In this document: in pieces, positions 3,657 through 23,774 of the stretch
Numbering within the stretch: position 1 is the first letter of the stretch
Layout of the letters: each line of letters begins with the position of its first letter
NCBI GenBank assembly: GCA_948466335.1
Contig: CAOKAE010000002.1
Span: forward strand, 28,029-92,028
Reading direction: 5' to 3'
DNA length: 64,000 bases
Origin: an uncultured Coriobacteriia bacterium
GTDB taxonomy: Bacteria; Actinomycetota; Coriobacteriia; Coriobacteriales; QAMH01
Notes under the pieces: generated by a model
What the model was told of the DNA's origin: nothing
Database searches by the model: none
The model's input: the letters and a program-made list of their open reading frames with translations, nothing else
Position numbers and translations under genes: made by a program

Positions 3657-3944
3657 TCAGACCAGGTAGATGCTGATGGAATGCGTCGGGCAGGAGTTAA
3701 CGCAACGGCCGCACCCGGCGCAGTTTTCGGGAGACGGCGCCCAGACCTTGAACGCGTCGCCCACCTTTCTCGCACGCAGGACGTCGTTTCGCGGACACCG
3801 GGAGATGCAGTTCATGCATCCCGTGCAGTATTCCTCGGTAATCCTGACGTGCGGGTTGTTCTTGTAGAAGCCCGGAGGCGGTCCGTATGCTCCCACTCCG
3901 GGCTCCCTTCGACGGTGGCGGATGGCGCGGGGGAGGTGCGTCAT
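3657..3944 (-). CDS. small 2x[4Fe-4S] ferredoxin-type protein
   Basis: 95 aa with two CxxCxxCxxxCP motifs (CTGCMNCISRCP, CAGCGRCVNSCP). It lies 24 nt downstream of the Mo subunit. Confidence 0.8.
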   Translation of the reverse strand: MTHLPRAIRHRRREPGVGAYGPPPGFYKNNPHVRITEEYCTGCMNCISRCPRNDVLRARKVGDAFKVWAPSPENCAGCGRCVNSCPTHSISIYLV

Positions 3945-6644: not shown

Positions 6645-6782
6645 GGCATGCTCTCCCTTCTCTTCTACTCTCCAGCCATTGACCTTGATGCGATGTCCTC
6701 GGCAGCACAAACTTTGGCAAGGTTGAACGCAGGCCCCCACATCACACCTGTTGAAAGCAGCATAAGAAGCATTCGTCCCGAG

Positions 6783-6842
6783 AAAAACGCCTTATCAATA
6801 CCAAATCATTGGGTAATGAACGGGGTACCGAAAGGGGTACCG
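6783..6842 (-). promoter_or_regulatory. conserved 60-nt upstream element with three GGGTA boxes at 12-bp spacing (candidate LAL-regulator operator/promoter)
   Basis: Colinear, gap-free match (42/60 by hand count) to 19676-19735. GGGTA occurs at 6811, 6823 and 6835. The element lies about 140-200 nt upstream of the Mo subunit start. Confidence 0.5.
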
Positions 6843-7134
6843 TTCCCAGTACGGGAATAGCTCTCTTTTGCACAAGACCGTGCCTTATCGAGAAATAACC
6901 CATCCCATTACCCTTTTTTTGGGACCGAAACAGACCTAACGCACAAAACGCCCGTCAACTAGCCTGATGTTGCCCTCGGAAATTCCGTGGGTTTGGCAAG
7001 GTGGGCTGCCCTTCATCGGCAGAAAGGCAACAACCGATCATCGTCGCGACAGTGTGCCGCGCGGCGGAATGCAGAAGGATGTTTCTCCCCAAGAAGCGAG
7101 AAGCCTTCTTTGCATTCTCGAGAGAGGGGATTAC

Positions 7135-8448
7135 ATGAGTGTAAATACGACGAGCATAAAGAACTATGGCATCATGGACCGCCAGCTAAATAACAAAGAA
7201 CGCTGGATTTGCTTCTGGGCCTTGTTCTTCTTCGGATTCATGTGCTCATTCAGCTTGTTCAAAGCTTCATCGGTCCTGCCGCAGATTGCGCAGGAACTCA
7301 GCATCGCTCCTGGCGACATCGGCATGGTCATGACGTGCTTCTCCATTGCCGGCCTCATCCTGGCGTATCCGGCCGCATGGATCATGCACACCATCGGCCT
7401 GAAGTCATCCGTCATGATTGCCGCCGTCATCTCCATTATCGGCACCGTGATGGGCTGCTTCGCACCCACTGCCGAGATATTCCTCGTTTCCCGTGCCGTC
7501 GAGGGCGTTGCCTACGGCCTCTTCTCGGTACAAGGCCCCAACCTGCTACCGCGCCTGTTCCCCCAGAAGAAGCTGGGTCTGGTCATGGGCGTCTGGTCGC
7601 TGTGGATGCCCGTCGGAAGCGTCTGCTCCTTCGTCATCACGCCGCTCATGTACGACGCCTTTGGTTGGCGTTCGGCCTGGTACGTGTGCGCCGCTGCCGA
7701 AATTCTGGCGACCATCGGCCTGTTCGTCTTCATGAAGCTGTCCGCCGTGCACGAGAACGAGATTGTCGACGGAGATGTCACGAAGAAGCGCAAGCCGACC
7801 AAGAACTTCTTCTTTGCCGCCATCATGATGCAGGTAGCATTCACCGGTTGGTGCTTCGTGTACCTGTCCAACATCAACGGCCTGTATCCCACCTTCCTTC
7901 AGGAGGTGAAGGGACTGTCCGTCTTCGACGCCTCGATGCTGCCGACCGTTCTGGCGCTTGTGACCATCGCCTTTGGCACGTTTGCCGGCATTCTTTCCGA
8001 CAAGCTCCAATCGCGCAAGACCTTCGCGGTCATCACATACGTCGTCGTCGCCATTGTCATGTTCACGATCGCCTACACCGATGACCCGAGCGACATGGTG
8101 AGCCCATGGGTGACGATGCTCATCATCGGCCTGTGCGGCAGCGTCCTGCCCATGGCAACCCGATCCATCGTGCCTGTCCTATGCCCCGACCCAAAGAAGA
8201 CTGACTATGCACTGGCCACTATGGCTTTCACCACCTGCGTCGCCCAGGTCTTCGGTGTCGTCGCAAGCCAATCGGTCGCGGCCCTGGGCTGGCACGGCAA
8301 CTCCGTGTTCGTGCTCGGCCCGGTTGCCCTCATAGCTGCGGCAATCGTGTTCTTCTGCGTCACGTCCGACAAGAAGGCCATAGCCGAGCTCAAGCATGCA
8401 GCCGACGCAGACGATGCGAATGTTCAGCCCGTCGAGGAGGCCAAGTAA
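7135..8448 (+). CDS. MFS transporter
   Basis: About 437 aa and multi-TM throughout. The start is set at MSVNTTSIK (ATG 7135) after AGAGAGGGGA. It is divergent from the Mo subunit. Confidence 0.8.
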   Translation: MSVNTTSIKNYGIMDRQLNNKERWICFWALFFFGFMCSFSLFKASSVLPQIAQELSIAPGDIGMVMTCFSIAGLILAYPAAWIMHTIGLKSSVMIAAVISIIGTVMGCFAPTAEIFLVSRAVEGVAYGLFSVQGPNLLPRLFPQKKLGLVMGVWSLWMPVGSVCSFVITPLMYDAFGWRSAWYVCAAAEILATIGLFVFMKLSAVHENEIVDGDVTKKRKPTKNFFFAAIMMQVAFTGWCFVYLSNINGLYPTFLQEVKGLSVFDASMLPTVLALVTIAFGTFAGILSDKLQSRKTFAVITYVVVAIVMFTIAYTDDPSDMVSPWVTMLIIGLCGSVLPMATRSIVPVLCPDPKKTDYALATMAFTTCVAQVFGVVASQSVAALGWHGNSVFVLGPVALIAAAIVFFCVTSDKKAIAELKHAADADDANVQPVEEAK

Positions 8449-8491
8449 GATCCAAAAGCTATGTGACGCATAGCCAAGCGAGTTTGACTAC

Positions 8492-8525: not shown

Positions 8526-8537
8526 ATCTTTGAGCCC

Positions 8538-11199
8538 CTACTTCATATCCTGCCTCAAGCTCCCAAGCGCCTCTGCCTTGTTGCGCACGCCCATCTTCAT
8601 ATACACGCTCGAAAGGTACTTCTTGGCGGTATTGATGCTGATGGAAAGCGTGTCGGCTATCTCGTTGCGCGAGAATCCCATATTGAGCAAACGCAAAACC
8701 TCGGCCTCGCGCTCCGTCAACATGTATTCATCCTGCAGGAAGGCCACGTCTTCACTGGCCGACTTATGCCTGCCGGAAGCCTCGGCGTCGAAGAACTGCA
8801 GTATTTCCTTGACATAGCCTCTCAGAAAGCCACCCAGCTTGCGCGTAGCCGCATACTCCCGCACGAGTTTGCTCATGGGCCGACCGCCGTTCAATATGGA
8901 GCGCATATAGCCTTGCTGGCGGGCAATGAAGATAAGGTCGTTGAAGGAGATGATGGACTTCGTCTCCTCGCCGGCATCGTGAAGGGCCAGGGTTTTCTCA
9001 ACGAGTGAGATGACAACGATGCGATTGAAATCGTGTTCCTTGGCACGCACGATTACCTCATCGAGCAAGAGGACCGCTTTGACATTGTCACCTTGCAACT
9101 TGGGGGCAAAAGCGTGAATGGTATCCAGCAGCAGCGTGCCAAGAATATCTCGCTCTTTCAGACGAGGGGCGAATTTCCTCTCGATACGTTGCACTTCTCT
9201 CACGTCTTCTCGATAGAGGGCAATCTGCGCCTGAAGAAAGTAAGCCGAAAGAAGCGCCTCGCGGGGAACGTCGCGATATTTTTCGCCTTGCAGTATTGCT
9301 TCGGTAATCACCTCGAACGCCTTGGACGATTCTCCCGATGACAGATACCAGAGGGCGTGTGCCGCCATTATGTCGAGATACAAATCGATATGCCGATAAT
9401 AGAAGAGGTCTTGCTTGGAAATGCGCAGCAGTTCGGAAACGTGTTCCGTCTCCGCCCGTTCCATCAAGATGCGCGCCAGCAAAGCGCAAGTCGCCCCGTA
9501 GATGGAAAAATCGGGAGGGCATTTCCTGATGAGCAGTTCGCATCTCTGCTCCGCTTTATCGTGTTCGCCGTAATAGTAGAGATTGACGGCATAGGAGTAT
9601 TCGTTATAGACGAGCTGGTGTATCGTCTGACTCACGCTCGCGCTCGCCTGCGCCTTGAGGTAGTACTCCATCGCCTGGTCATAATCACCGATACTGGAGT
9701 AAGCCTCGCCTTCCGATTGATTGATCATGCTCAACAGCGAAGGGCTTATGGGCCACTCTCCGCTCTGCAGCTCCTCGCAAAGACGAAGCGCCTCCTCTCC
9801 TTCACCGCGCATTGCCAAGTACTTCATTTCAAGGCACTTCATGGAAAAGACGAGCGCATCGGGACCGGCGTCGCCAAGTGCCTTCTCGTCTTTGGCGAGT
9901 TTCTTGAAAACATCCATGTAGATGTCGGCGTCTTCCAAACGGGCAAAGGTCACGCACGACCACGTTGCCATAAGGCACAGGAAAGGATTTCCCGGAATCG
10001 ACGCGGCGGGCACTCGACACATCCACATAAGCGAGTCATCCGATTTGTCGGGCCGGGAAAGGCCGCTTGTGATTTCCACAAGTCCTTCGATGTAATCCAA
10101 GTCTCCCGACATCATGAGATACTTCACGGCGTCATCGGAACGTCTGTTCTCGTGAAACCACTCGCTGGCCTTGAGGCAGATTCCGCGCAGCTCGCTCATG
10201 TCGACCTGGGCCAGGCCGCAGCGCAGCACATCGAGAAACATGGGGTGCAGCCTATACCACTCGTTCTCATAGTCGCAATTCAAGATAAACGCATTGGAAT
10301 CAAGCAGGCCATTGAAGAGCTCGACCACGTCGTCTGACTCGAATGCGAATGCGAGGAGCGAACGATTGAAGCTCTCGAACAGGGAGGCGCGCGTGAGAAA
10401 GGCGACGTCTTCCTGGGACAATCCCGAGAGGACGTTGCAGGAGAAGAAGTCGCGAATGAGATTGCTCTTCCCATTCACGAGTGGCTCTACGCCGAGCTTC
10501 CTGTTGAGCATGGCGGCCTGGCTGCGCAACTTGATGCCCTGGATCCATCCTTCAGTCCCGTCGTATATCGCATCGACGAGCTCGGCGGAAACGCCCTCGC
10601 CACAGATGCCCCGAACGATGCCTTCGCTCTCTGCACGACTGAACGCGAGATCGCTTAATTCAAACCCGATGTCACCATATTTGAAGGAGGCAAGCTTGAG
10701 TCCACCCGACAGCTTTCTCGTGCTTGCCACAAAATGATACTCGGGGGGAAGCAGAGAGCAGAGGCGAAGGAAGTCTTCTATGAGCGAAGACGACGTTATG
10801 CACTCCAGGTCGTCGATGCACACGAAACGCTTGCGGCCCGTCTCATCTCGAAGAGAGAACGCGAGGTCGGCTAGTTTCGCAACATCGCCTGCCACGGGTT
10901 CGGAGGCGGCGTTGAAGCCCCCCCCCGTCGACGAGGGCACATATCAGATGGCTCCAAAACCATTCGCCTTCGGAAAGGGCCGAATCGGCGGTGAGCCAGC
11001 TTACCGCATGTCCCTCTTGTCTGAGCCTATCGGCGAGCTCCCGCATCGCCGTCGTCTTTCCGTAGCCATTTGGAGCGTGCAGGAACGTGATGCGCTGTGA
11101 GACAGCCGCATGATGCAGATTGTCCATGAGGGGACGACTGGCAACGAGATTCTGTGGCAAGTCTGGTTCGATGAGCCGCGCTCGAACGAATTGATCCAT
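8538..11199 (-). pseudogene. LAL/MalT-like LuxR-family regulator interrupted by a +1 frameshift in a G9 run
   Basis: The N-terminal P-loop part (MDQFVRARL...HAPNGYGKTTAM..., frame of ORF 10843-11454, ATG 11199) and the TPR-like plus C-terminal LuxR HTH part (ORF 8538-10940) align end to end with the intact paralog 19739-22423. The frames meet at 10918-10926. Confidence 0.8.
10918..10926. repeat. C9/G9 homopolymer at the frameshift point
   Basis: Read directly: gaag-ccccccccc-gtcg. G8 would fuse ...ICALVDGGG with FNAASEPVAG.... Confidence 0.95.
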
Positions 11200-11344
11200 T
11201 GGTTGCCCCCAGTCTCCGCCATGGATGCCCTCTGCAATGCGCATGGAACAATGGGGCAAGCTTTGCCAGCAGCGATGCCCGCGCAGCACATTATACGCGC
11301 AAAGGGGAAGGCGAGAAGCCGTTCGCCTCCCCTCTCTCGCGATG

Positions 11345-12841
11345 CTAAAACGCCGGCACTTCCAAATTTCGCCTGGCGGTGACCTTGTACATCTCCCTCC
11401 ACGGGTTGACGCGCTCGTAGGCGGCGCTTGCCGCAAGCAGGTCGAGCTCGCCATAACGTCTCGAGATCAGCTGCAAGCCGACGGGGAATCCGTCCTTTGA
11501 CAATCCCGCTGGAATGGACGCCGCCGGATTACCGGCGAAGTTGCAGAAGAAGGTGAGGCCGAAACCGCAAAGCGGATCGCTCTTCACCCCGCAGATCTGG
11601 GAGGGCCCGAGCGTGTTGCGATTGGGGTCGTTCTTGGGCGGATGACATGCGCTCGTGGGCGACAGAATGAGGTCGTAGGTCTGCAACGCTCCCTGGAGCT
11701 GGTCGAACACCTCGGTGCGAAGCATCTCGTCGTTATGGAAGTCGACGTAGCCGCGCTTGTACGAATCCTCGACCCACCAGATGAACTCGTCGGGCAGGTC
11801 ATCTGCATGGTCGCGCAGCAGGTCGATGCCCATCGCCTTGATCTCCTCGATCGAGCCGAGGCCACCGGAGATGGTGATCATGCGGCACCACGATTCGGCG
11901 AGTTCGAAGGCCGAGTGCTTGAAGTCGAAGGTTACGGGCTCCACGATGGCCCCGGCCTCCTCGAAGTGCTTGGCCGCCGCCTCGGTGATCTGGGCGATTT
12001 CGGGCTCGACGGGAAAGATGCCGAAGTCCGGCGTGAAGCCGATGCGCATCCCCGCAATGGGCCTGTCGAGGGCCGCGATGTAGTCGCGGTCTCCGAAGTC
12101 GATGCTGTTGGGGTCGAAGGGATCGTAGCCCGCCATCGCCTGCAGGGCGTAGGCGGCATCCTTCACGCCACGCGAGATGCTGCCGGCGAAGCAGTACGGA
12201 TGGCAGGTACCGTAGGCGTTGGGACGCGGAGCGCCGCCCACGGTGCCGTTTCCGGGCTTGAAGCCGTAGCAGCCGCACCAACCCGCGGGAATGCGGATGG
12301 ACCCGCCGCCATCGGAGCCTTCGGCGATGAGCAGCATGCCGTCACCGACGGCGGCTGCCGATCCTCCCGACGAGCCACCCGAGTTGTAGCCGGGCTTGAA
12401 CGGCGTGCTCGTGGGGCCGTACATCTTGTTGTCGGTCGTGCCCCGGAATGCGAACGACGGGGCGTTCGTCTTGCCGATCATGATCGCGCCCTCGTCGTTC
12501 ATGGCACCCGTGTAGCTGCCCCAGTGTTCGTCAACGAGATGCGCAAGGGCCTTGACGCCGCCGGTCGTCCCCGGCCAGCCGGGCACGCCGGGAATGAAGT
12601 CCTTGGCGGCGGTGGGGATGCCGAAGAACGTGCCGTGCGCCTCGCCGCGCGTGAGTTTGTCGTCTTCCTCGCGGGCCTTCGCGCGTGCCTCGTCGTAGTT
12701 GGTGTAGACGAAGGCGTTGATGGACGGATTGCGCTCGTCGATGGCCTTGATGGTCTCCTCCATCACCTCCGATGGCGAGACCTTCATGGCCTTGATGTCA
12801 TGGGCAAGGTCAACCGCACTCGTGTATTCGTCGCTAATCAT
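11345..12841 (-). CDS. amidase-signature (AS) family amidase, copy 1
   Basis: Contains [11 protein letters not shown] and the catalytic Lys context IPTAAKD. The start is set at MISDEYTS (ATG 12841) after AGGAGG, matching the paralog's start. Confidence 0.9.
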   Translation of the reverse strand: MISDEYTSAVDLAHDIKAMKVSPSEVMEETIKAIDERNPSINAFVYTNYDEARAKAREEDDKLTRGEAHGTFFGIPTAAKDFIPGVPGWPGTTGGVKALAHLVDEHWGSYTGAMNDEGAIMIGKTNAPSFAFRGTTDNKMYGPTSTPFKPGYNSGGSSGGSAAAVGDGMLLIAEGSDGGGSIRIPAGWCGCYGFKPGNGTVGGAPRPNAYGTCHPYCFAGSISRGVKDAAYALQAMAGYDPFDPNSIDFGDRDYIAALDRPIAGMRIGFTPDFGIFPVEPEIAQITEAAAKHFEEAGAIVEPVTFDFKHSAFELAESWCRMITISGGLGSIEEIKAMGIDLLRDHADDLPDEFIWWVEDSYKRGYVDFHNDEMLRTEVFDQLQGALQTYDLILSPTSACHPPKNDPNRNTLGPSQICGVKSDPLCGFGLTFFCNFAGNPAASIPAGLSKDGFPVGLQLISRRYGELDLLAASAAYERVNPWREMYKVTARRNLEVPAF

Positions 12842-12915
12842 CGAACCCTCCTTTGCGGAAATGGGGAACATCCCTCGTGACGAGTGACGCTACGATGCCT
12901 CGCTCGCCTCCTTGC

Positions 12916-12954
12916 AAAAAGAAGGGGCGCCCGACATCGTGTCTTGCGCCCCTT
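12916..12954 (-). terminator. intrinsic terminator between the Fe-S subunit gene and amidase copy 1
   Basis: Minus strand reads AAGGGGCGC-loop-GCGCCCCTT followed by CTTTTTG. Confidence 0.6.
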
Positions 12955-12972
12955 TCAAACACCGTGCCTTCG

Positions 12973-13746
12973 CTAGGCCGCCGGCACGTCGCCGATGTTC
13001 ACGTCGACTTGCGTCGCATCGGCATCGTAGGTCCTGGCATCCTTGCCGGACACCTGGTAGATGACCTGGTAAACAGCAGGCTCGACCTGGTCGAACATGA
13101 AGTCGCCGAACTCGTCGGTCTTTTGCTCGGCCACCGTGTTGCCGCTTGCGCTCACGAGCTTCACGTCGGCACCGATGACGACCTCGCGCTCGTCGAAGTC
13201 GACGACGCAGCCCGTGACGAACCTTTTGGGAAGGTTGCGGTACCAGATACGCGAGCCCGCGACAAGCTGCTCGGCGCCCTCGAGGTCAAGCTCGGCCACA
13301 TCGCCAAAGCGCAGCGCCTTGGTGGGGCAGGAGTCCACGCAGCGCGGAACTTCCCAGCCATCGTCGAGCAGGTGCGCGCAGCCCGTGCAGGTCTGCGGAA
13401 TCTGGAGCTCCTCGTTCCAGTAGACGCCCTCGAACTCGCAGAGGTCCTTGCGGCCCTTCGCCTTCTCGGGGTCGAGGTACATGAGACCGTCATCGCGCTG
13501 CACGGCGGCGTCGCCAGCAGCGGCGGCCAACGCGTCGCTCTGTCCGCCAATCTGCGGGACGTAGGTGATGCGCGTCTTGGGGACGGTTCCGCGGACCCTT
13601 TCCTCGACCTTGCACCAGAACTGGCCCGTCAGCGGCTGCTCGGCGGCGTAGGGTAGCCAATCCGTGCCGCAATGCTCGTCCTTGCAGGCAATCTGACAGT
13701 TCATGCAACCGTTGCACCTGGCAACGTCAATGAGAAATGCTTTCAT
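12973..13746 (-). CDS. [4Fe-4S] cluster subunit (BthL/DmsB-like) with C-terminal carboxypeptidase-regulatory-like beta-sandwich
   Basis: 257 aa. Cys clusters CNGCMNCQIACKDEHC and CTGCAH...CVDSCP. The C-terminal 80 aa (GCVVDFDEREVVIGADVKLVSASGNTVAEQKTDEFGDFMFDQVEPAVYQV) fits the CarboxypepD_reg pattern. The start is 3 nt after the alpha stop. Confidence 0.8.
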   Translation of the reverse strand: MKAFLIDVARCNGCMNCQIACKDEHCGTDWLPYAAEQPLTGQFWCKVEERVRGTVPKTRITYVPQIGGQSDALAAAAGDAAVQRDDGLMYLDPEKAKGRKDLCEFEGVYWNEELQIPQTCTGCAHLLDDGWEVPRCVDSCPTKALRFGDVAELDLEGAEQLVAGSRIWYRNLPKRFVTGCVVDFDEREVVIGADVKLVSASGNTVAEQKTDEFGDFMFDQVEPAVYQVIYQVSGKDARTYDADATQVDVNIGDVPAA

Positions 13747-13748
13747 CT

Positions 13749-16361
13749 CTACGCCTCCACAATCCAGCTATCGGGAATCTGGCCGAACTCGGGGTCGTAC
13801 GCACGTCCCCATTCCTCCGGACGTTCCTTCGCCATCTCGAGGACGTCGACCTTCTTCACGCCGACGAGGTAGCTGTTGGTCACCTCGCCCGCGCAGTTCT
13901 TCGACGTCGTGGCCGACGGGCAGATCAGGTTGTTGGCACCGCCACGATCCAGGCCGCCCACGCCGGTCTCTATCTCGTCCTCGCGGGCACCATGGTCCTG
14001 CGAGACGCAACCGGGCATGATACGCTCGGAGACGACGACGCCACCGAGGACGGCGCCACGCTCGTTGTAGAGCGCCGCGATGTCGCCATCGACCAGGCCG
14101 AGCTTCTTCGCATCTATCGGATTCACGTACAGCGGCTCGTACAGATAGCCATCGGGACCCGTGACCTTGCCCGTGCCAAACTCGTGGAACCAGGGGATGT
14201 CGTCATGGTTGGCATGCACGCGCCAACGCGGATGGTTGGTGACGAGCAGGAACGGATAGTCCTTGGCTCGTGGACTCGAGAGACGGTCGTCATGACCGTC
14301 AAGCGGCTCCTCGATCCAGCGCGCAACCGGGCCGCGGGCCGTGTCGTCGGGGAAGACCTGCGCAAGGGACTCGGAGTAGTACTCGATCAGGCCAGAGGGC
14401 GTGGAAAGCGGGTTGGCCACGGGATCCTCGTAGAAACCGATGAGGCCATGGGGCATGTCCTCCCAGTCCTCGCGCGTCGGGAACAGCTTGAAGCGGTCGG
14501 CCTTGAACTGCTCGAAATCGGCGGTTTCGCCATCCTCGATGCCGGACTCGCGGAAGCCCTTCTCGATCCAGCCCATGACGTCGCGTCCCTGGGTGTAGCG
14601 CTCGTACAGGTTCTCGTAGTTACCACCGAACTTCTCGAGCGCCTTGGCGACCGCGCACACGGCCTCGTAGTCGCTTCGGGTCTCGCCAATGGGATCGATG
14701 GCGCGACCCTCGTAGGCGATGGCGTTCCATTGGCCGCTTCTCACGTCGACGTTGAAGTCCTCGGTCTCGAACAGCGTGTTCGTGGGCAAGATGATATCGG
14801 CGAACTTGGTGTCGTTCTCGAACCAGGGATGCTGCACCAGGATGAAGTCGAGCTCGGGGTCGCGCATGGCCTCCTGGAAGACGTTACCGCCCTGCCAGCA
14901 ATTGGACCAGCAGGGGGCATCCGACCAGATCATGCGCACGCCCTTGCCCTCTTCCGGTTCCCACTCGAAGGGGATGAACTGGTCGACGGTCGCGATGCCG
15001 GCGATGACGTGGCCATGCCACTCGAGTTTCTTCTCGGTGATGGCCTTGGGGATGAGCGTCTTGGGAATGAACGGCTCGGAGAGGTCCATGGTCGCACCGC
15101 GATAGGCACCCTCGACGCTGGGAAGCACCGAACAGGAGGGAAGCGGGTTCCAGGTGGGCATGTCCATGAGCTGCCACTCGATCATCTGGAACTGGTTGAC
15201 ACCGGGCTGGCCCACGCCGCGCATGCCCAGCAGGTAGATCTCCATGCGCGCCGGCTCGTGCGAGAACGCCGCGCGGATGTAGCCGCCGCCGTTGCAATGG
15301 GCGACCGAGACCTTCCTGCTCGCCCAGTAACGTGCCAGGGCCTTGATGCGATAGTCGGGCACGCCGCACTTCTCGGCCGCCCATGCCGGCGTCTTCTCGA
15401 CGCCGTCATCGTCACGACCCATGACGTAGTCCTCGAACTTGTCGAAGCCCACGGAATGCGTGGCGACATAGTCCTTCTCGTAGGTACCCTCGGTAAGCCA
15501 CACGTGGGCGATGGCGAGCTGCAGGGCGACGTCGGTGTTGGGCAGGACGGGAATCCACTTGTCCGCGTGGATTGCCGCGCCGTAGTTGAGGTCGGGGCAC
15601 ACGTAGACCTGCTTGACGCCGATATCGGTGAACCAATACGAGATGAGGCTCGACATCTGGCCGCCCCAGCCCCATGGCGTGGTCTCGGGGTCGGCGCCCC
15701 ACATGAAGACGGCGTCCGTATGCTCGGCAATGTCCTTGATGACGTTGTTGGTGATGGTCTGCATACCGACGGGATCCATGCCCCAGACGTGCTTGGCTCC
15801 CCAGTACCAGCCCTCCCAGGAGTCCGGTTGGCGAGCCTGCTTGAGAAAGCCGCCCGTGAGCGCGAGGAGGTTGGTCTGGCAGCCGTGGGCCGCATGGACG
15901 GTCTTGGTCTCGCCGTGGCCGTCCGATTGCGCATAGATGGAGAACGGGCCGCACTCGTCCTGGATCCTCTTGATCTCGGCCGCGATGATGTCGCAGGCCT
16001 CGTCCCACGAGATGCGCTCGTACTTGGAGATGCCACGGTTCTGCGGATTGCGCTCGCCGTTGGGATCCCAGTCGACGCGCTTGAGGGGATACGGGATGCG
16101 GTTCTTCGAATAGGCGCGCATCTTGTACGCGGTGGCCAGCGGCGGCGGGCAGCTTGCCATGCCCGGCTCGAGGACGTGACCGTCCTTCTCGATCTTCCAG
16201 TAGTTCAGGTCCTCGGGCTTGTAGAGCTGGTCGTAGTGCAGCGGACGGATGCGCGCGACGCGCCCGTCCTTGACATCGACCTCGGTGATGTTGGCACCCA
16301 TGCCGAAGCCGCAAAAGCCGATGCACTTGATCACTGATTTGTCAGAGGTCTTTCTAGACAT
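13749..16361 (-). CDS. molybdopterin oxidoreductase large subunit, pyrogallol hydroxytransferase (AthL)-like; no FS0 cysteine motif, no Tat signal
   Basis: 870 aa. The N-terminus MSRKTSDKSVIKCIGFCGFG lacks Cx2Cx3C and RR. The block RIPYPLKRVDWDPNGERNPQNRG..YERISWDEACDIIAAEIKRI resembles AthL from memory. RBS is GAAGGAAAGGA. Confidence 0.8.
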   Translation of the reverse strand: MSRKTSDKSVIKCIGFCGFGMGANITEVDVKDGRVARIRPLHYDQLYKPEDLNYWKIEKDGHVLEPGMASCPPPLATAYKMRAYSKNRIPYPLKRVDWDPNGERNPQNRGISKYERISWDEACDIIAAEIKRIQDECGPFSIYAQSDGHGETKTVHAAHGCQTNLLALTGGFLKQARQPDSWEGWYWGAKHVWGMDPVGMQTITNNVIKDIAEHTDAVFMWGADPETTPWGWGGQMSSLISYWFTDIGVKQVYVCPDLNYGAAIHADKWIPVLPNTDVALQLAIAHVWLTEGTYEKDYVATHSVGFDKFEDYVMGRDDDGVEKTPAWAAEKCGVPDYRIKALARYWASRKVSVAHCNGGGYIRAAFSHEPARMEIYLLGMRGVGQPGVNQFQMIEWQLMDMPTWNPLPSCSVLPSVEGAYRGATMDLSEPFIPKTLIPKAITEKKLEWHGHVIAGIATVDQFIPFEWEPEEGKGVRMIWSDAPCWSNCWQGGNVFQEAMRDPELDFILVQHPWFENDTKFADIILPTNTLFETEDFNVDVRSGQWNAIAYEGRAIDPIGETRSDYEAVCAVAKALEKFGGNYENLYERYTQGRDVMGWIEKGFRESGIEDGETADFEQFKADRFKLFPTREDWEDMPHGLIGFYEDPVANPLSTPSGLIEYYSESLAQVFPDDTARGPVARWIEEPLDGHDDRLSSPRAKDYPFLLVTNHPRWRVHANHDDIPWFHEFGTGKVTGPDGYLYEPLYVNPIDAKKLGLVDGDIAALYNERGAVLGGVVVSERIMPGCVSQDHGAREDEIETGVGGLDRGGANNLICPSATTSKNCAGEVTNSYLVGVKKVDVLEMAKERPEEWGRAYDPEFGQIPDSWIVEA

Positions 16362-16426
16362 CGTGTGTCCTTTCCTTCAAACGCCGAGCGCGCCCATCCG
16401 CCGGGAACAGGCACGCTCGATTACCT

Positions 16427-17908
16427 TTAGAGCATGCGGTTCTTCGTGACTTCGTACGTAGACGCCCACGGATTGACGCGCTCGTACGCGGCACTCGCCG
16501 CCAGAAGGTCGAGCTCGCCATAGCGGTTGCCGATGAGCTGGAGTCCGACCGGGAAGCCTTCCTCGGAAAGCCCCGCCGGAATGGACGCCGCCGGATTGCC
16601 CGTGAAGTTGCAGAAGAACGTGAGGCAAAAGCCGATGAGCTGTTCGGCCTTCACGCCGTTTATCTCCTTGGGGCCGACGGTGTTCCAACCCGGATCGTTC
16701 TTGACGGGATGGCAGGCACAGGTGGGTGACAGAATGAGGTCGTAGTTCTGGAACGCACCCTGTATCTGGTCGAACACCTCGGTGCGAATCACCTCGTCAT
16801 CGTGGAAGTCCACGTAGCCATGCTTGTATGCATCCTCGACCCAATAGATGAGCTCGGGAGGCAGGTCATCCGCATGGTCGCGCAGCAAGTCGATGCCGCC
16901 GGCCTTGAACTCCTCGATGGTGCCCAGGCCACCCGAAATCGTGATCATGCGATCCCAGGCCTCGGCGAGCTCGAAGGCCGAGCGCTTGAAGTCGAAGGTC
17001 ACGGGCTCCACGATGGCACCAGCGTCCTCGAACTTGGCCGCGGCCGCCTCGCACATGGCCGCAACCTCGGGGTCGACGGGGAAGATGCCGAAGTCCGGCG
17101 TGAAGCCGATGCGCATGCCCTTGACGGGCTTGTCGAGGGCCGCGACATAATCGCGGTCTCCGAAGTCGATGCTGTTGGGATCGAAAGGGTCGTATCCCGC
17201 CATCGCCTGCAGGGCGTAGGCGGCGTCCTTCACGGTGCGCGAAATCGTGCCATCCCAGCAATAGGGATGGCAGGTGCCGTAGGCGTTGGGACGCGGAGCG
17301 CCGCCGATGACGCCGTTGCCCGCCTTGAAGCCGTAGCAGCCACACCACGCGGCGGGAATGCGAATGGACCCGCCTCCGTCCGTTCCTTCGGCGATGAGCA
17401 GGATGCCGTCACCGACGGCGGCTGCCGACCCTCCCGACGAGCCGCCCGAGTTGTAGCCGGGCTTGAACGGCGTGCTCGTGGGACCGAACATCTTGTTGTC
17501 GCAGGTACCGCGAAACGCGAGCGCCGGCGAATTGGTCTTGCCGATCATGATCGCGCCCTCGTCGTTCATGGCACCCGTGTAGCTGCCCCAATGGTCGTCG
17601 ACCATATGCGAAAGCGCCTTGATGCCTCCAAATGTTCCGGGCCAACCGGGCACGCCGGGGATGAAGTCCTTGGCGGCGGTGGGGATGCCGAAGAACGCTC
17701 CCTTCGCCTCGCCGCGGACGAGCTTGTCATCCTCGCCCTTGGCCTTTGCGCGGGCCTCGTCGTAGTTGGTGTAGACGAAGGCGTTTATGGACGGATTGCG
17801 CTCGTCGATGGCCTTGATGGTCTCCTCGACGACCTCGGACGGGGCAATCTTCTTTTTCTTGATATCTGACGCCAGGTCTACGGCGCTCGAGTACTCGTCA
17901 GTAATCAT
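16427..17908 (-). CDS. amidase-signature (AS) family amidase, copy 2
   Basis: 493 aa with [11 protein letters not shown]. Roughly four fifths of positions match copy 1 in an alignment by eye. Confidence 0.9.
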
Positions 17909-18030
17909 GGTTTCGCTCTTTTCTAAACGAATCCGACCCCTAGCATGGTCACTAGGAACACGTCAGGGGTCGGAACTTTCGAACTATTCGCGAGCTGTCA
18001 CCCGACAGCTTCGTCCGTACGGGCCTCTTG

Positions 18031-19440
18031 CTATGCCAGACCCATGGCGGTGCAGACGAGGGGCAGGACGATGGAGACCATCAGGATGGCCGCGATGCTG
18101 GGAATCCAGCCCACCTTGAGCTCGTCAAAGGGCGAGAAGTACTTGCGTTCGCTTGCGTAGGCAACGTACACGCAGAGATCCAACGGCAGCAGGAACGCCG
18201 CGGAGGAGAACACCGCGCACATGAAGATGGCGGCGGTGACGTTGCCACCCAGGCTGATGACCAGGCCGCAGACGGGAATCGTGATCAGACCGGCAACGGC
18301 CGCACCGGCGGGAAGGATGTTGTGGATGACGCAGGCAAAGGCGGCGACGAGAATCATCACGACAACCACGGGCAGGCCCAGGAGAGGAGCAAAGGCCGTG
18401 TTGACCAGCCAGACCATGGCACCCGTCGCGATGAAGCCCGCGACGAAGCAGCCGACGGCCCAGTTGAGCATGACGACCGACCAGGGGCTTTCGTCACACC
18501 ACTTCTTGAAGGAAACGCACTTGAAGGGCGGAAGGAACATCAGGAACAGGGCGAAGAGACCGATGACCGTCATGTCGAGCTGCGGGACCCAGGAACCGGC
18601 AATCCACAGGCCCAGGGTCACGACGATGACGAGCATGCCCCAGATCTCGTCCTTGCCAAAGCCGGAGATCTCCGCGCGCTCCTTCTGGATGCGCTCGATG
18701 GCCTCGTCGCTGATGGGCTCGGGCTTGAAGATCTTGACGATGACGAACCAAGAAAGGGGCAGGAGGATGATGTTCATGATGATGCCCAGGACCATCCAGT
18801 TCGCGAACGTCACCGTGATGCCAAACGCCTGCTCGGCAAAGCCCATGGCAAGGATGTTCACGACGCTGCCGACGGGGGTGATCCAACCGCCGATGTAGGA
18901 CGCGAACGCGATGCCAAGCACGAGTGCCTTGGCCAAGTTGGACTTGTTGCCCCACGGGGTCTTGTTCTCGTCCAAAATCCTGTACGCGAACGGGAGCATG
19001 ACCAGAACGAGAACGAGGTCATCGATGATGAGCGAAAGGAGCGCCGTGGCGAGCATCAGGCCCGCGAGCACCTTCTTGGAATCGTTCTTGGCCCACTTCA
19101 GGATGAACGCGATGATGCGCAGCGAGATGCTGGAATACTGCACGAACAGGGCAAACGCGAAGCAGGGCAGGCAGACGATCATGGCCACGCTTACGCCGCT
19201 CATCCATGTCTCGTTCGAAGACAGGATTCCCATCAAGGGTACGGCGGCGGCAAAGGCCCACGCCGTCACCACGATGGGGATGGGCTCGCAGATCCACATG
19301 ACAACACAGGCGACCAGAATGCCCAGCAGCATCTTTCCCTCGAATGCAAGGCCTTCTGGAGTCGGAATCAGGAACGTGATGATGACGATGAGAATGGAAA
19401 TTGCGGTAATTCCCACTTTGAAAGGCAGTTTCTCCCTCAT
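18031..19440 (-). CDS. anion permease of the DASS/ArsB-NhaD (ion transporter) superfamily
   Basis: 469 aa and hydrophobic throughout with many TM helices. RBS is GAGGAGGG. The family call rests on overall pattern only. Confidence 0.6.
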   Translation of the reverse strand: MREKLPFKVGITAISILIVIITFLIPTPEGLAFEGKMLLGILVACVVMWICEPIPIVVTAWAFAAAVPLMGILSSNETWMSGVSVAMIVCLPCFAFALFVQYSSISLRIIAFILKWAKNDSKKVLAGLMLATALLSLIIDDLVLVLVMLPFAYRILDENKTPWGNKSNLAKALVLGIAFASYIGGWITPVGSVVNILAMGFAEQAFGITVTFANWMVLGIIMNIILLPLSWFVIVKIFKPEPISDEAIERIQKERAEISGFGKDEIWGMLVIVVTLGLWIAGSWVPQLDMTVIGLFALFLMFLPPFKCVSFKKWCDESPWSVVMLNWAVGCFVAGFIATGAMVWLVNTAFAPLLGLPVVVVMILVAAFACVIHNILPAGAAVAGLITIPVCGLVISLGGNVTAAIFMCAVFSSAAFLLPLDLCVYVAYASERKYFSPFDELKVGWIPSIAAILMVSIVLPLVCTAMGLA

Positions 19441-19675
19441 CTTTTCCCTCCTCTATAACCGAATTCAACAGATTCTTGGTGAGCACCCATAGCCAAGATC
19501 CTTCCTCACCAAACGCCTCTTACGGCACAAGCGACAGGTGATGCGGCGAAACCTGGCCGATGATCTCTCCCCTCCCCTCGGGGTGTCTCAGGCTTTCCGA
19601 AAGACGCATGGAGCACGTCCGGCAACCCGCTCCGATGCACGTCCACGGACGAGCATATAGAGCGGGCAGAGGAGC

Positions 19676-19735
19676 AAAAACGCCTTATCCGTACCAAAAG
19701 ACGGGATAAGCGCACGGGTAGTGTGCGGGGTACCG
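19676..19735 (-). promoter_or_regulatory. second copy of the 60-nt element with three phased GGG(A)TA boxes
   Basis: Contains AAAAACGCCTTATC..TACCAAA. Boxes end at TA 19707-08, 19719-20 and 19731-32. It lies between the LuxR stop (19739) and the permease start (19440). Confidence 0.5.
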
Positions 19736-19738
19736 CCA

Positions 19739-22423
19739 CTACCCACACCAGACATCCGCATCCTGGTTCGCGCCCCGCATCAATCCCTCGAGCGCTTCGG
19801 CCTTGTTGCGGGCGCCCATCTTGGCGTAGATGTTGGAGAGGTGCTTCTTTGCCGTGTTGATGCTGATGGAGAGCGTCTCGGCAATCTCGTTGCGCGAGAG
19901 GCCCATGTTGAGCAAGCGCAGCACCTCCACCTCGCGAGTGGTGAGCATGTATTCGCTTTCCAGGAAAGCGGCGTTCTCGTCGGCGGCCTCGCGTTTGCCA
20001 AGGCCCTCCGCCTCGAAGCGCAGCAGGATGTCCTTCACGTACGTTCGCAAGGTGCCGCCCAGCCTTCTCGTCGTCGAGTACTCGCGCAACAGTTGCCTCA
20101 TGGGTGCCCCCGCATTGAGGATCGTGCGCATGAACCCACGCAGGCGGGCGATGCGGATGAGCTCGTTGAGGGAGGTGATGGCCTGGACCTTCTCGCCCAT
20201 GCCGTCGAGGATGAGGGTCTTCTCCACCAGCGCGATCACGACCATGCGATTGAAGTCGCGTTCGAGCGCGCGCTCGATCATGTCATCGAGCAGCTTCACG
20301 GCCTCGCGCTGGCAGCCCTGCAGACGTAGGGCGAAGGCGTGGATGGCATCCAGCAGCAATGCGCTGAAGGCGTCCTGCTCCTTCAGGTGCAGGGCGAACT
20401 TGTTTTCCACGAGCTGCATTTCGTTGAGGTCCCCGCGATGCAGGGCGATCTGCGCCTGGAGGAAATAGGCGGAAAGCAGCGCCGCACGGGGGATGTCGCG
20501 ATACTTCTCCCCCTGCAAGACGGCTTCGGTGACCACCTCGAAGGCCCTGGAGGAGTCTCCCGAGGCAAGGTGCCAGACGGCGTGGGCCGTCATTATGTCC
20601 AGATACAGGTCTATGTGCCGATAATAGGAGAGCTCCCTCTCGGAGAGCCTGAGCAGGTTTGGCACACGCTCCACGTCGGCGCGCTCTATCAGGATGCGCG
20701 CGAGAAGTGCGCAGGTCGCCCCGTAGATGGCAAAGTCGGGAGGGCATTTCTTGAGAAGGCTCTCGCAGCTGCGTTCGGCCTTGTCGTGTTCGCCGCAATA
20801 GTAGAGGTTCACCGCATAGGTGTACTCGTTGAAGACGAGCTGGTGAACCGTCTGGTCAACGGTCGCGCTTGCCTGCCCCTTCAGGTAGTAATCCCTCGCC
20901 TGCGTGTAATCACCGATATACGAGCATGCCTCGCCCTGCGATTGGTTGATCATACTGAGCAGCGATGAGGTGATGGGCCAGCTTCCGTCCTGCAGCTCCT
21001 CACATAGGGCCAGTGCCTGCTCGCCCTCGCCCTGCATGGCAAGGTACTTCATGGAAAGGCACTTCATGGAAAACGAGGCGACTTCGGAAGAGATCGCACC
21101 TGCCGCGATCTCCCTCTCCATGAGCGTCTCGAGAATGCCTATCCACAGGTCGGCGTCCTCGAGACGGGCAAAGGTCACGCACGACCAGACCGCTATGAGG
21201 CACAGGAGAGGAGAATCGGGAATCGACGCGGCGGGGACCCTGCACAACCAGGCAAAGGAATCCATGGACTTGTCACGACGCGTGAGCCCGCTCGTGGCCT
21301 CCACGAGCCCCTCGACGTAGTCAAGGTCCCCCGACATGCTCAGGTACTTGACGGCCTCGTTGGGGTATCCGTTGTCGTGAAACCACTCCCCCGCGCTCAG
21401 GCAGAGGCTGCGAAGCTCGCTCGTGTCGATGCGCTTCAACTCGTAGCGCAACATGTCCTGGAACATGGGATGCAGCCTATACCACTCGTCCTCGTAATCG
21501 CAGTTCAGGATGAACGCGTTGGAAACCAGCAACCGATCGAACCTTTCCACGGCGCCGTTCGAGCCGAGTATGAAGGAGAGGAGCGGCCGGTTGACCTTCT
21601 CGAACAACGAGACGCGAATGAGAAAATCGACGTCCTCCTGGGAAAGCCCGGAGAGGATGTTGCAGGTGAAGTAGTCGCGTATCAGGCTGTTCTTCCCGTT
21701 GATGGGACTTTCGACGATGCCCAGTCTCTCGTTGCGCGCCATGGCCTGGGCCCTCAGCTTCACACCCTGAATCCATCCCTCGGTGTCACGGTATACCTCG
21801 TCGGCAGACCCATCGTCGAGGTCCGCGCCGCAGACATCCCGAATGACCTCCTCGGCCTGGTCGCGCGTGAATATGAAGTCCCGTAGCTCGAACACGCGCT
21901 CACCGTATCTGAAAGCCGCTGTCTTCAGGCTGTCCAGAAACTCTCGCGTGCTCACCACGAAATGGTATTCGGGGGGAACCTCGAAGCAGAAACGGAGAAA
22001 GTCATCGATAAGGGAGAGGGACGTTATCCGGTCAATACCATCGAGAAAGACGAAATGCTCGGTGTCGGCCCGATGCCGAAACAGGATGTCCGCGAGCTGC
22101 GCTCCATCATGCGCGACTTCTTCCGTCCCCGAATCCAGGCAGGGCACGCTCTCGCTCAGCGAGACATGGAGGTGTCCCCAAAACTGCTCCGGTTCGGACA
22201 ATGGCGTGTCGAGGGCAAGCCAGCTCGTGCCCTGGCCATCCTGTCTCAACGCCCGGGCGAGTTCGTCCATGGCTATGGTCTTGCCATAACCGCTCGGCGC
22301 GTAGAGAAAGGTCACGCGCTGGACATGGGCCACACGCCTCATGTCATCAATCATGGGACGGCCTGCCACGAGATTGGGCGGCAGCGCTGGCTCGATGAGC
22401 CTTGCTCGAACGATCTGATCCAC
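19739..22423 (-). CDS. LAL/MalT-like LuxR-family transcriptional regulator (intact)
   Basis: 894 aa. N-terminal P-loop (YAPSGYGKTIAM), long helical/TPR-like middle and C-terminal LuxR HTH (LTTREVEVLRLLNMGLSRNEIAETLSISINTAKKHLSNIYAKMG). Confidence 0.9.
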   Translation of the reverse strand: MDQIVRARLIEPALPPNLVAGRPMIDDMRRVAHVQRVTFLYAPSGYGKTIAMDELARALRQDGQGTSWLALDTPLSEPEQFWGHLHVSLSESVPCLDSGTEEVAHDGAQLADILFRHRADTEHFVFLDGIDRITSLSLIDDFLRFCFEVPPEYHFVVSTREFLDSLKTAAFRYGERVFELRDFIFTRDQAEEVIRDVCGADLDDGSADEVYRDTEGWIQGVKLRAQAMARNERLGIVESPINGKNSLIRDYFTCNILSGLSQEDVDFLIRVSLFEKVNRPLLSFILGSNGAVERFDRLLVSNAFILNCDYEDEWYRLHPMFQDMLRYELKRIDTSELRSLCLSAGEWFHDNGYPNEAVKYLSMSGDLDYVEGLVEATSGLTRRDKSMDSFAWLCRVPAASIPDSPLLCLIAVWSCVTFARLEDADLWIGILETLMEREIAAGAISSEVASFSMKCLSMKYLAMQGEGEQALALCEELQDGSWPITSSLLSMINQSQGEACSYIGDYTQARDYYLKGQASATVDQTVHQLVFNEYTYAVNLYYCGEHDKAERSCESLLKKCPPDFAIYGATCALLARILIERADVERVPNLLRLSERELSYYRHIDLYLDIMTAHAVWHLASGDSSRAFEVVTEAVLQGEKYRDIPRAALLSAYFLQAQIALHRGDLNEMQLVENKFALHLKEQDAFSALLLDAIHAFALRLQGCQREAVKLLDDMIERALERDFNRMVVIALVEKTLILDGMGEKVQAITSLNELIRIARLRGFMRTILNAGAPMRQLLREYSTTRRLGGTLRTYVKDILLRFEAEGLGKREAADENAAFLESEYMLTTREVEVLRLLNMGLSRNEIAETLSISINTAKKHLSNIYAKMGARNKAEALEGLMRGANQDADVWCG

Positions 22424-22514
22424 CAGTTACCCCTTCCCCCAGGGTTTTGGGTGAACGCGCACGATAACCTCATTAAAACTATCAGGCTATGCGATGATAA
22501 AAAGCATCCGTAAC

Positions 22515-22545
22515 GGATTATTTTCGAGGGTAATGCAAAGGGTAA
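22515..22545 (-). promoter_or_regulatory. phased GGATTA/GGGTAA/GGGTAA boxes upstream of the intact LAL regulator
   Basis: TA dinucleotides at 22519-20, 22531-32 and 22543-44, giving 12-bp spacing. The site is about 90-120 nt upstream of ATG 22423. Confidence 0.35.
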
Positions 22546-22727
22546 GGCGAAACGAAAACCTTATACCTTCTTAAGATAATATCCATGCAAATCGCGCAAT
22601 TATTCACTGGGCCCGAGCCGCAAATGCACGTGGCATTTTCTGCCGAAGCCAACTCCCGTGCCCCGAATCTACGATAGAATGCTCTGGGCATATTCTCAGT
22701 GTCGGCCCAGACGGAATGGATGAGTAG

Positions 22728-23774
22728 ATGGACCTCACGCTCTCGGTGTTTATCGCGCAGGCAGGTGCACACCCCGCGCTCATCGTGATTCTCATCCTCG
22801 TCATTGGCGTTACCGTCATCTCGGGCGCAACCGACGCCCCCAACGCCATTGCCTCGGCCGTCTCCACCCGCTGCCTCAAACCCGGAACGGCATTGATCCT
22901 GGCGGCCATCTTCAACTTCATCGGCCTCGTGGGCATGACTTACATCTCGACCGCCGTCGCCCACACCATGTTCAACATGGTCAACTTCTCGGGGAACACG
23001 CACCAGGCCCTCATGGCGCTCATAGCCGCGATGATAGGCTCCATCGGATGGGGCTTCTTCTGCTGGTATCGGGGCATTCCCGCATCCAAGTCCCATTCGC
23101 TCATCGCCGGCGTCACCGGTGGTGCCATAGCCATGAACGGCCTTGCCGGCGTCGTCATCAGCGAGTGGATGCTCGTCATCTACGGCATGGTCTTCTCGCT
23201 CGTCGCCGGATTTGCCCTGGGCTGGTTCAACACCCGCCTGGTCGAGTTTCTCTTCGCGCGGGCAAACCGCTTCAAGGCGAACAACGCCTGCATCATCCTG
23301 CAGGATATCTGTGCTTGCGCCCTTTCGTTTCTCCACGGCGCGCAAGACGGGCAGAAGTTCATGTCAATCGGACTGCTGGGCATCGCGCTTGCGTTCGACA
23401 TGCAGACGAGTGGTGCGACCGAGTTTCCGCTCTGGCTCATGATCCTCTGCTCACTCGCCATCTCGCTCGGCACGCTCGTCGGCGGCAAGCGCATCATCAA
23501 ATCCGTCGCCATGGACATGGTCAAGCTCGAGAAGTACCAGGGCGTGGCCGCCTCGGCAACGACGGTCATCACGCTCTTCATCGCCTCCATCACCGGCATG
23601 CCGGTCTCGACCTCGCATTGCAGCACGGCGGCCATCATGGGCGTGGGAGCCTCGAAAAATCCCAAGCGCGTCAAATGGGACGTCGCCAAGAGCATGGTCG
23701 CGGCGTGGCTTCTAACCTTCCCCTGCTGCGGGTTCATCGGCTGGGCGCTCGCCCAGATTTTCATGCTCTTCTAG
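22728..23774 (+). CDS. inorganic phosphate transporter, PiT family
   Basis: 348 aa. GATDAPNAIA near the N-terminus and a second PiT-type repeat near the C-terminus. Confidence 0.8.
   Translation: MDLTLSVFIAQAGAHPALIVILILVIGVTVISGATDAPNAIASAVSTRCLKPGTALILAAIFNFIGLVGMTYISTAVAHTMFNMVNFSGNTHQALMALIAAMIGSIGWGFFCWYRGIPASKSHSLIAGVTGGAIAMNGLAGVVISEWMLVIYGMVFSLVAGFALGWFNTRLVEFLFARANRFKANNACIILQDICACALSFLHGAQDGQKFMSIGLLGIALAFDMQTSGATEFPLWLMILCSLAISLGTLVGGKRIIKSVAMDMVKLEKYQGVAASATTVITLFIASITGMPVSTSHCSTAAIMGVGASKNPKRVKWDVAKSMVAAWLLTFPCCGFIGWALAQIFMLF

Follow-up and report, generated by a model that had tools for sequence, protein, structure and literature searches.

The described systems closest to the gene cluster analysed here are the pyrogallol-phloroglucinol transhydroxylase AthL/BthL of Pelobacter acidigallici and the catechol dehydroxylases of gut Eggerthellaceae, the family to which molybdenum-dependent dehydroxylation of dietary polyphenols, neurotransmitters and drugs has so far chiefly been traced. 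The cluster lies in a 64,000-nt stretch (the window, to which all coordinates refer) of contig CAOKAE010000002.1 from an uncultured Coriobacteriia bacterium of the human gut. For such dehydroxylation the literature searched describes only two enzyme types, the Eggerthella type and the Gordonibacter type, both acetylene-hydratase-like; the papers on catechol dehydroxylases place these enzymes beside acetylene hydratase, with AthL apart or as an outgroup. The Gordonibacter-type enzymes (Dodh, Cldh, Gp Hcdh, Gs Vadh and Eadh1-3) are cytoplasmic and have two subunits, and their substrate-induced clusters combine a regulator, a transporter, a molybdenum subunit and a small Fe-S protein. In the described clusters the regulators are membrane-spanning LuxR or LysR proteins and the transporters belong to the major facilitator superfamily (MFS); no AthL-like pair, DASS transporter or amidase has been reported in them. 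AthL/BthL (EC 1.97.1.2; PDB: 4v4c) is a two-subunit cytoplasmic bis-molybdopterin guanine dinucleotide (bis-MGD) enzyme without a twin-arginine translocation (Tat) leader or FS0 motif. Its molybdenum is ligated by a Ser with flanking His, Asp and Trp residues, and BthL joins a ferredoxin part (twelve cysteines, three [4Fe-4S] clusters) to a C-terminal CarboxypepD_reg-like barrel. Resorcinol hydroxylase RhLS of Azoarcus anaerobius and 3,5-dihydroxybenzoate hydroxylase DbhLS of Thauera aromatica AR-1, compared here by description only, are further Ser-ligated cytoplasmic MopB enzymes with phenolics as substrates.

Six core open reading frames (ORFs), all on the minus strand, encode in this order a LAL regulator (LAL1), a DASS permease, amidase 2, a molybdenum subunit (alpha), an Fe-S subunit (beta) and amidase 1; the Pfam domains fit each of them, and the order and positions given in a first-pass annotation of the DNA match the ORF list exactly. 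The association of an AthL/BthL-like pair with amidases which that annotation pointed out is real as far as sequence comparison can show, and is strengthened by conserved synteny. Its limits (11345-22423) were drawn too narrowly, however, since the genes at 3657-11199, encoding a second molybdenum enzyme (Mo885), a ferredoxin (Fer95), an MFS transporter and a second regulator (LAL2), are syntenic partners in related clusters and part of the functional unit. We describe the locus as a cluster of two molybdoenzymes whose feeding module, DASS plus amidase, is exchangeable; the best lead to its substrate is an anionic aryl amide. On balance it appears to serve biotransformation in gut Eggerthellaceae-type Coriobacteria, being substrate-inducible, located entirely in the cytoplasm and most likely directed at an anionic aromatic amide. 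The features are listed in Table 1.

The two molybdenum enzymes

The best solved match of alpha is AthL (35% identity; E = 4.9e-111 from the sequence alone, 1.9e-169 when a family profile is used). An AlphaFold2 model of alpha, built from 126 sequences (pLDDT 93), has its best fold match in 4v4c_A [TM-score 0.84, E = 1.5e-73], with MtsZ, DorA and TorA trailing at 0.77-0.79. Residues H149, D180, S181 and W182 of alpha align with H144, D174, S175 and W176 of AthL and are invariant in all sequences compared, from the AthL clade as well as from the clade of alpha itself; S175 is the molybdenum ligand of AthL and S181 is its counterpart. Beta likewise finds its best solved match in BthL (E = 2.1e-40), the alignment to 4v4c_B covering residues 4-243, and PF13620 recognizes its C-terminal CarboxypepD_reg-like domain (4.6e-08). 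Pfam and the BthL alignment thus agree with the architecture first assigned to beta, an Fe-S part followed by a carboxypeptidase-regulatory-like domain. The stop codon of alpha and the start codon of beta are separated by 2 nt (corrected from 3 nt), which suggests translational coupling. By sequence, alpha is placed in the Ser-ligated RhL/PgtL group, to which RhLS and DbhLS also belong, as a distinct subfamily; the literature searched holds no functional assignment for any member of its clade.

The matches that follow AthL, in sequence as well as in fold, are the dimethyl sulfoxide, trimethylamine N-oxide and methionine sulfoxide reductases, which have Ser ligation in common with alpha; the NCBIfam model bisC_fam scores 8.9e-101 on alpha, far under its cut-off. 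They raise the possibility that alpha/beta reduces an N-O or S-O group (in an N-oxide, hydroxamate or sulfoxide) as DorA, TorA, BisC and MtsZ do, instead of acting on ring hydroxyls. We regard this as improbable, because AthL is clearly the best match of alpha and because, of the solved structures matched, those of the AthL group alone have a BthL-type beta subunit that ends in a barrel. BisC-type cytoplasmic reductases are not known to have an Fe-S subunit, which also speaks against such a function.

The second molybdenum enzyme is of a different kind. Mo885 is 84% identical to the enzyme inside the clusters of Gordonibacter sp. 28C and Gordonibacter faecis, and this orthologue has acetylene hydratase (2e7z) as its best solved match (7.9e-96). 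With an FS0 motif, no Tat leader, a small Fe-S partner, an MFS transporter and a regulator, Mo885/Fer95 has the features of the Gordonibacter-type class and is classified, from its sequence, as catechol-dehydroxylase-like. Organisms and cluster logic, and presumably induction by substrate, are thus common to this locus and the published Gordonibacter-type systems, but alpha/beta is not an enzyme of that type, which is acetylene-hydratase-like and carries the FS0 motif. The published Gs Vadh of Gordonibacter sp. 28C was considered as a possible identity of Mo885 or its orthologue; it is probably a different locus, as the Vadh cluster has a LysR regulator and two transporters.

Amidases and the conservation of their linkage to alpha

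Both amidases align with PF01425 over its whole length (1-445 of 445), and no NCBIfam model scores above its cut-off for either. Their best solved match, again over the full length, is the bacterial aryl acylamidase (EC 3.5.1.13) 4yj6/4yji (E = 3.4e-134), which was crystallized with paracetamol; enzymes of this class convert non-peptidic aryl amides to an aniline and a carboxylate. The Lys / cis-Ser / Ser triad is intact in both (motifs AAKD, GGSSGGS and GGGSIRIPA), so that triad and signature motif agree with the solved enzyme, which differs in coming from a Bacillus-type aerobe and in lying outside any molybdoenzyme cluster. The longest ORF of amidase 1 has 508 aa. A start 10 codons further in, at 12841 (MISDEY, 498 aa), is more likely as it agrees with the start of amidase 2 and with 498-aa gene calls on public contigs. 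The two proteins are 82% identical without gaps, close to the four fifths first estimated by eye. Their divergence (dS 0.61, dN/dS 0.20) and the presence of both copies in a second species, UMGS650, contradict the recent duplication that had been proposed, and argue that both genes have been maintained; as the ratio indicates, both are under purifying selection.

A genome scan yielded 80 loci with relatives of alpha, and the gene arrangement around its orthologues (77-97% identity) takes several forms. The co-occurrence of amidase and alpha is not specific to this strain: wherever a context examined has an amidase with 64% identity or more, which is the case in seven, a DASS gene, the amidase and an AthL-like alpha stand together. 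These are the window and UMGS650 (L010), both DASS-amidase-alpha-beta-amidase, the preceding LAL being known from the window as the L010 contig begins within DASS; G. faecis (L009), LAL-Mo-DASS-Fer-amidase-alpha-beta; L089, LAL-Mo-Fer-DASS-amidase-alpha-beta; L087, Mo-Fer-MFS-MFS-alpha-beta-DASS-amidase; L095, LAL-Mo-DASS-Mo-Fer-amidase-alpha-beta; and L096, Mo-Fer-DASS-amidase-alpha. DASS and amidase are direct neighbours in most of them, the window, L010, L089, L087 and L096 included. Orthologues of alpha, beta, Mo885 (79-84%) and Fer95 co-localize, in differing orders, in at least five lineages, namely the window, L008, L009, L087 and L089. L008, Gordonibacter sp. 28C, has the order LAL-Mo-Fer-MFS-alpha-beta (alpha 79%), and MGYG-HGUT-02686 (L007) has LAL-MFS-alpha-beta (alpha 96%). 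The flanking genes of L007 are those of the window, with an MFS gene filling the slot of DASS and amidase 2; DASS plus amidase thus behaves as an exchangeable feeding module for one alpha/beta enzyme.

It is decidedly improbable, given this synteny, that amidase and DASS are hitch-hikers that serve, for example, nitrogen scavenging from some amide and are functionally unconnected with the molybdenum enzymes. In favour of this reading, amidases of the signature family are widespread and promiscuous, homologues at 61% identity or less sit with ABC, SSF or TRAP transporters or mobile elements (a molybdenum enzyme is absent from all three such contexts examined), and the amidase is missing beside the two close alpha orthologues L007 and L008. 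Against this, the orthologous amidases keep DASS and an AthL-like alpha in every context despite reordered genes, and molybdoenzyme or ferredoxin genes are interleaved between DASS and amidase in G. faecis (Fer) and L095 (Mo and Fer).

Among the 80 loci, the most frequent neighbours of alpha-clade genes are beta (53), further FS0-type molybdenum enzymes (26), DASS (19), MFS transporters (17 + 8), membrane-spanning LuxR-type regulators (14) and LysR regulators (11 + 5). In several genomes the alpha gene is present three or four times. This layout of transporter, regulator and molybdenum enzyme is that of substrate-induced catechol dehydroxylase loci, which suggests that the clade consists of substrate-specific phenolic-acid enzymes.

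Table 1. Features of the cluster, with positions in the window.
Feature	Position	Strand	Description
Fer95	3657..3944	minus	95 aa, 2x[4Fe-4S] ferredoxin, partner of Mo885; Pfam Fer4_7 + Fer4
Mo885	3969..6626	minus	885 aa, acetylene-hydratase-like bis-MGD enzyme; FS0 motif CHFCHMNC, no Tat leader
Intergenic element, copy 2	6750..6860	minus	upstream of Mo885; exact CGGTACCCC direct repeat (twice)
MFS transporter	6967..8448	plus	divergent from Mo885; Pfam MFS_1 9.7e-46
LAL2	8538..11199	minus	second MalT-type regulator, ~63% identical to LAL1
Amidase 1	11345..12871	minus	paralogue of amidase 2; PF01425 full length
Stem-loop	12916..12955	minus	GC-rich 9-bp stem then CTTCTTTTT, between beta and amidase 1
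Beta	12973..13746	minus	257 aa, BthL-like; Pfam Fer4_11 + CarboxypepD_reg
Alpha	13749..16361	minus	870 aa, cytoplasmic bis-MGD molybdenum subunit; Pfam Molybdopterin + Molydop_binding
Amidase 2	16427..17908	minus	493 aa, amidase-signature hydrolase, aryl-acylamidase-like; PF01425 4.6e-83
DASS	18031..19440	minus	469 aa, DASS/CitMHS-type anion symporter; presumed importer
Intergenic element, copy 1	19640..19738	minus	directly after LAL1 stop, upstream of DASS operon
LAL1	19739..22423	minus	894 aa, GTG start; MalT-type STAND ATPase + TPR + LuxR helix-turn-helix

Divergence of alpha and beta from AthL and BthL

AthL residues 17-868, reconstructed from a printed alignment and used as a search query, retrieve a large separate clade whose members share 61% identity or more with AthL. 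When a neighbour-joining tree is built from 30 members of this AthL clade, 30 relatives of the window alpha and an outgroup, the two clades are each monophyletic; identities are 59-96% within the AthL clade, 55-97% within the window clade and 29-40% between them. Phylogenetic comparison with AthL, which the first-pass annotation had proposed, thus sets alpha apart. AthL residues R153, W354, Y404 and Y560, which vary little or not at all within the AthL clade, are replaced in the window clade, R153 by A, P or S, W354 by Y or F, Y404 variably and Y560 by W or F, and a 10-residue deletion adjoining AthL position 560 shortens the Y560 loop. These four residues reportedly line the substrate and cosubstrate sites of AthL. 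As judged from the tree, alpha belongs to a sister clade of AthL and is not an AthL orthologue. The AthL/BthL likeness first recognized therefore stands as the best solved match of both subunits and in the fold, and does not extend to orthology. Given the separate clade and the lost residues, transhydroxylase activity is not to be assumed for alpha; for its chemistry only the label 'AthL-like' is used, and the transhydroxylase name is not carried over.

On this evidence there is only a very small chance that alpha/beta is a true pyrogallol-phloroglucinol transhydroxylase for gallate or tannin fermentation, with the amidases as unrelated neighbours. AthL and BthL are the best solved matches and the His/Asp/Ser/Trp core is kept; the low identity to AthL, the reciprocal monophyly, the replaced residues and the conserved amidase linkage all contradict it. 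Nor is there a gallate decarboxylase or phloroglucinol-pathway gene in the window (over most of which ORFs of at least 250 aa were scanned) or among the recurrent flanking families; in place of a phloroglucinol pathway, the context here consists of amidases, DASS, a LAL regulator and a second molybdenum enzyme.

Beta also departs from BthL, and full likeness to that subunit cannot be upheld. When BthL and the window beta are aligned with 71 relatives (73 sequences in all), the twelve cysteines of BthL prove to be nearly always kept, C68, C71 and C76 being present in 61-68 of the 73. In the window beta these three are replaced by G, S and A (residues 67-72), leaving nine of the twelve aligned cysteines. 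The same loss is found in L007, L010, L022 and L089, the last also lacking the fourth ligand, and all four ligands of this Fe-S site are retained in the two Gordonibacter betas (L008, L009) and in L087. The counterparts of these cysteines in DmsB/NarH-type ferredoxins presumably hold the cluster farthest from molybdenum, and the missing ones probably belong to the distal one of three [4Fe-4S] clusters. Since the loss is common to several diverged lineages with intact genes, it argues against dependence on electron exchange through that cluster; it fits a redox-neutral or locally balanced reaction without proving one. RhLS and DbhLS, by contrast, are oxidative; they come from denitrifiers and hand their electrons on to an acceptor. 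The idea that a separate ferredoxin beside Mo885 tracks the loss of the third beta cluster was rejected, as Fer95 homologues occur in all lineages (L008, L009, L087 and L089 in the related clusters).

The last alternative, a Tat-exported respiratory reductase, has next to no chance: alpha is a member of the DMSO reductase family and Eggerthellaceae have many respiratory-type reductases, but its N-terminus (MSRKTSDKSVIKCIGFCGFG...) has neither a twin-arginine motif nor Cx2Cx3C, Pfam gives no Molybdop_Fe4S4 (PF04879) match in alpha, the cluster has no membrane-anchor gene and the transporter partners point to substrate import. The absence of a Tat leader and FS0 motif, and with it the soluble nature of the enzyme, had been read correctly from the start, and alpha does not group with Tat-exported reductases.

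Import, regulation and a proposed pathway

The permease scores above the Pfam cut-offs for CitMHS and Na_sulph_symp; it falls short with TIGR00785 (4.4e-42, 144 bits against a cut-off of 198.6), and its nearest solved relative, VcINDY, is distant (1.5e-13). LAL1 matches Pfam TPR_MalT and GerE and NCBIfam MalT (1.5e-54), its best solved match is MalT (8bob), and its N-terminus bears the Walker A motif SGYGKT of a P-loop NTPase. The long start is supported by conservation of the N-terminal 23 aa in the paralogue LAL2. PADLOC matches to the LAL regulators were dismissed as they cover the helix-turn-helix domain only.

The first-pass annotation had noted a 60-nt element after LAL1. It is genuine and is repeated, 19676-19735 being 70% identical to 6783-6842. 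Copy 1 contains GGTACCCC / TACCC half-sites, a 9-bp hairpin with a T-run and a TATGCT box. A three-way alignment of the regions upstream of DASS and Mo885 with the LAL-MFS spacer of L007 (8290-8350) reveals an operator-like core, in which GGTACCCC/TACCC direct repeats about 12-13 nt apart are followed by a GATAAGGCGTTTT stretch and the TATGCT box. The element precedes both molybdenum operons of the window and the MFS-alpha-beta operon of L007. A blastn-short search did not find it in the Gordonibacter loci, its only matches being in L007 and within the same species. An Rfam scan of 3000-23000, judged by E-value, gave no match, neither riboswitch nor leader, and the element fits no Rfam family. 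We read 19640-19738 as the probable LAL1 terminator together with an operator/promoter, and the two copies fit recognition of related operators by the paralogous LAL1 and LAL2.

A simple terminator and promoter scan of the intergenic gaps gave nothing useful. It missed the hairpin between beta and amidase 1 at 12916-12955, which was read and folded by hand (centroid structure, z = -2.28). UMGS650 keeps the stem with one compensatory pair; the T-run is not conserved. A hairpin is thus confirmed where the first-pass annotation had placed an intrinsic terminator; the structure may be such a terminator, an attenuator or an mRNA-stabilizing hairpin.

In the proposed pathway LAL1 would bind an inducer and ATP and activate the promoter in the element just downstream of its own gene. 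The DASS symporter, as its family suggests, would bring in a carboxylate-bearing amide, which one or both amidases would hydrolyse with their Ser-cisSer-Lys triad; as anilides are cleaved by their closest solved relative, this would release a carboxylate together with an aromatic amine or a phenolic acid. Alpha/beta would bind a ring hydroxyl at the Ser181-ligated molybdenum, with His149 and Asp180 as acid and base, and relocate or remove it, in series with Mo885 and Fer95, which would reductively remove a catechol hydroxyl. The substrate of DbhLS is an anionic phenolic acid, in keeping with the DASS partners. DASS and amidase would form an interchangeable feeding module, and the MFS-bearing relatives presumably import the free phenolic compound. 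The sequence of uptake, amide cleavage and hydroxyl chemistry had been suggested in the first-pass annotation. It is strengthened by the conserved synteny and by an aryl acylamidase as the closest solved relative of the amidases, and modified in that a second molybdenum enzyme belongs to it and the transhydroxylase label does not. For the reaction of alpha/beta itself, a redox-neutral or internally balanced hydroxyl transfer is our tentative first choice; reductive dehydroxylation is possible too, oxidative hydroxylation like that of resorcinol hydroxylase is doubtful, and some other reaction, such as N-O or S-O reduction, is unlikely.

Several observations weigh against this pathway. L007 and L008 carry alpha/beta with an MFS gene in place of DASS and amidase, so that these orthologues work without an amidase, which would then be accessory. 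Alpha has other residues where the AthL clade is invariant, so that the analogy to transhydroxylation is weak as regards the substrate pocket. Tyr136 of the reference aryl acylamidase is Leu130 in amidase 2 and Phe in amidase 1, and Thr330 is Gly; we take both positions to be ligand contacts of the reference enzyme, and the differences make the anilide preference a lead only. Amidase 1 sits after the hairpin, and its co-transcription may be in doubt. Finally, LAL2 is frameshifted in the window at a poly-G run, 10918-10926 (a C-run on the plus strand), which separates the P-loop part from the remainder of the protein. Other contigs of the same species encode an intact LAL2 of 863 aa. The run is G9 in the window, G10 in L006, G11 in both L001 and L002, and G13 in L005; G11 alone preserves the reading frame, and the variation is either phase variation or an assembly error.

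A more speculative proposal is that the AthL-like sister clade forms a third, unrecognized class of molybdenum enzymes of gut Coriobacteria that transform polyphenols or drugs, redox-coupled with a catechol-dehydroxylase-type enzyme and fed by dedicated aryl acylamidases. One molybdenum enzyme would shift or add a hydroxyl and the other remove one, the substrates being aminophenolic or hydroxy-aromatic acids freed from aryl amides; oat avenanthramides, benzoxazinoid-derived N-aryl malonamic acids, N-acetyl-5-aminosalicylate and paracetamol conjugates are candidate amides. If true, this would be a new gut route of dietary or drug amide metabolism.

The locus points to a further enzyme clade in these bacteria, widespread, present in multiple copies per genome and related to pyrogallol transhydroxylase. 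Its conserved partners, an anion importer and a hydrolase resembling aryl acylamidases, narrow the search for substrates to anionic aromatic amides, and two cultured isolates differ naturally in the feeding module (DASS and amidase in G. faecis KGMB12511, MFS without amidase in Gordonibacter sp. 28C). Should the substrates be drug or cereal-derived amides, the cluster would bear directly on how drugs are inactivated or reactivated and on the metabolite profiles of diets. The literature searched yielded no described pathway that couples such an enzyme to amidase-signature hydrolases, as the first-pass annotation had stated, and nothing relevant on a transhydroxylase-amidase link or on AthL-like enzymes in Eggerthellaceae; coverage was incomplete and a prior description is possible.

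A third molybdenum enzyme (~747 aa, Molybdop_Fe4S4) and a 110-aa ferredoxin adjoin DASS or amidase genes in related clusters (L087 10530-13107, L095 6278-8862 and L096 4558-7131), and up to three different molybdenum enzymes may thus serve one pathway. A 70% identical orthologue of the MFS transporter adjoins Mo887-Fer in L087. Proteins identical to those of the cluster are found on contigs of uncultured Coriobacteriia/Coriobacteriales metagenome-assembled genomes, and close variants on 100-200 contigs.

The remainder of the window consists of housekeeping genes (ffh, ftsY, smc, rnc and folate genes). A 51-nt unit is present there in four copies at 35551-35950. Three copies lie within the 3' part of the ftsY-like gene (35616-36971, minus strand), past the SRP54 GTPase domain, where they would encode a repetitive C-terminal tail; the fourth, nearly identical (94%), lies just beyond the stop codon. 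A GC-rich palindromic element (TGTGTCAGGGGGTCAGACCCC...) occurs three times, at 28489-28524, 42819-42849 and 49815-49848, near the ends of long ORFs and in both orientations, and may be a REP-like (repetitive extragenic palindrome) sequence or a shared terminator.

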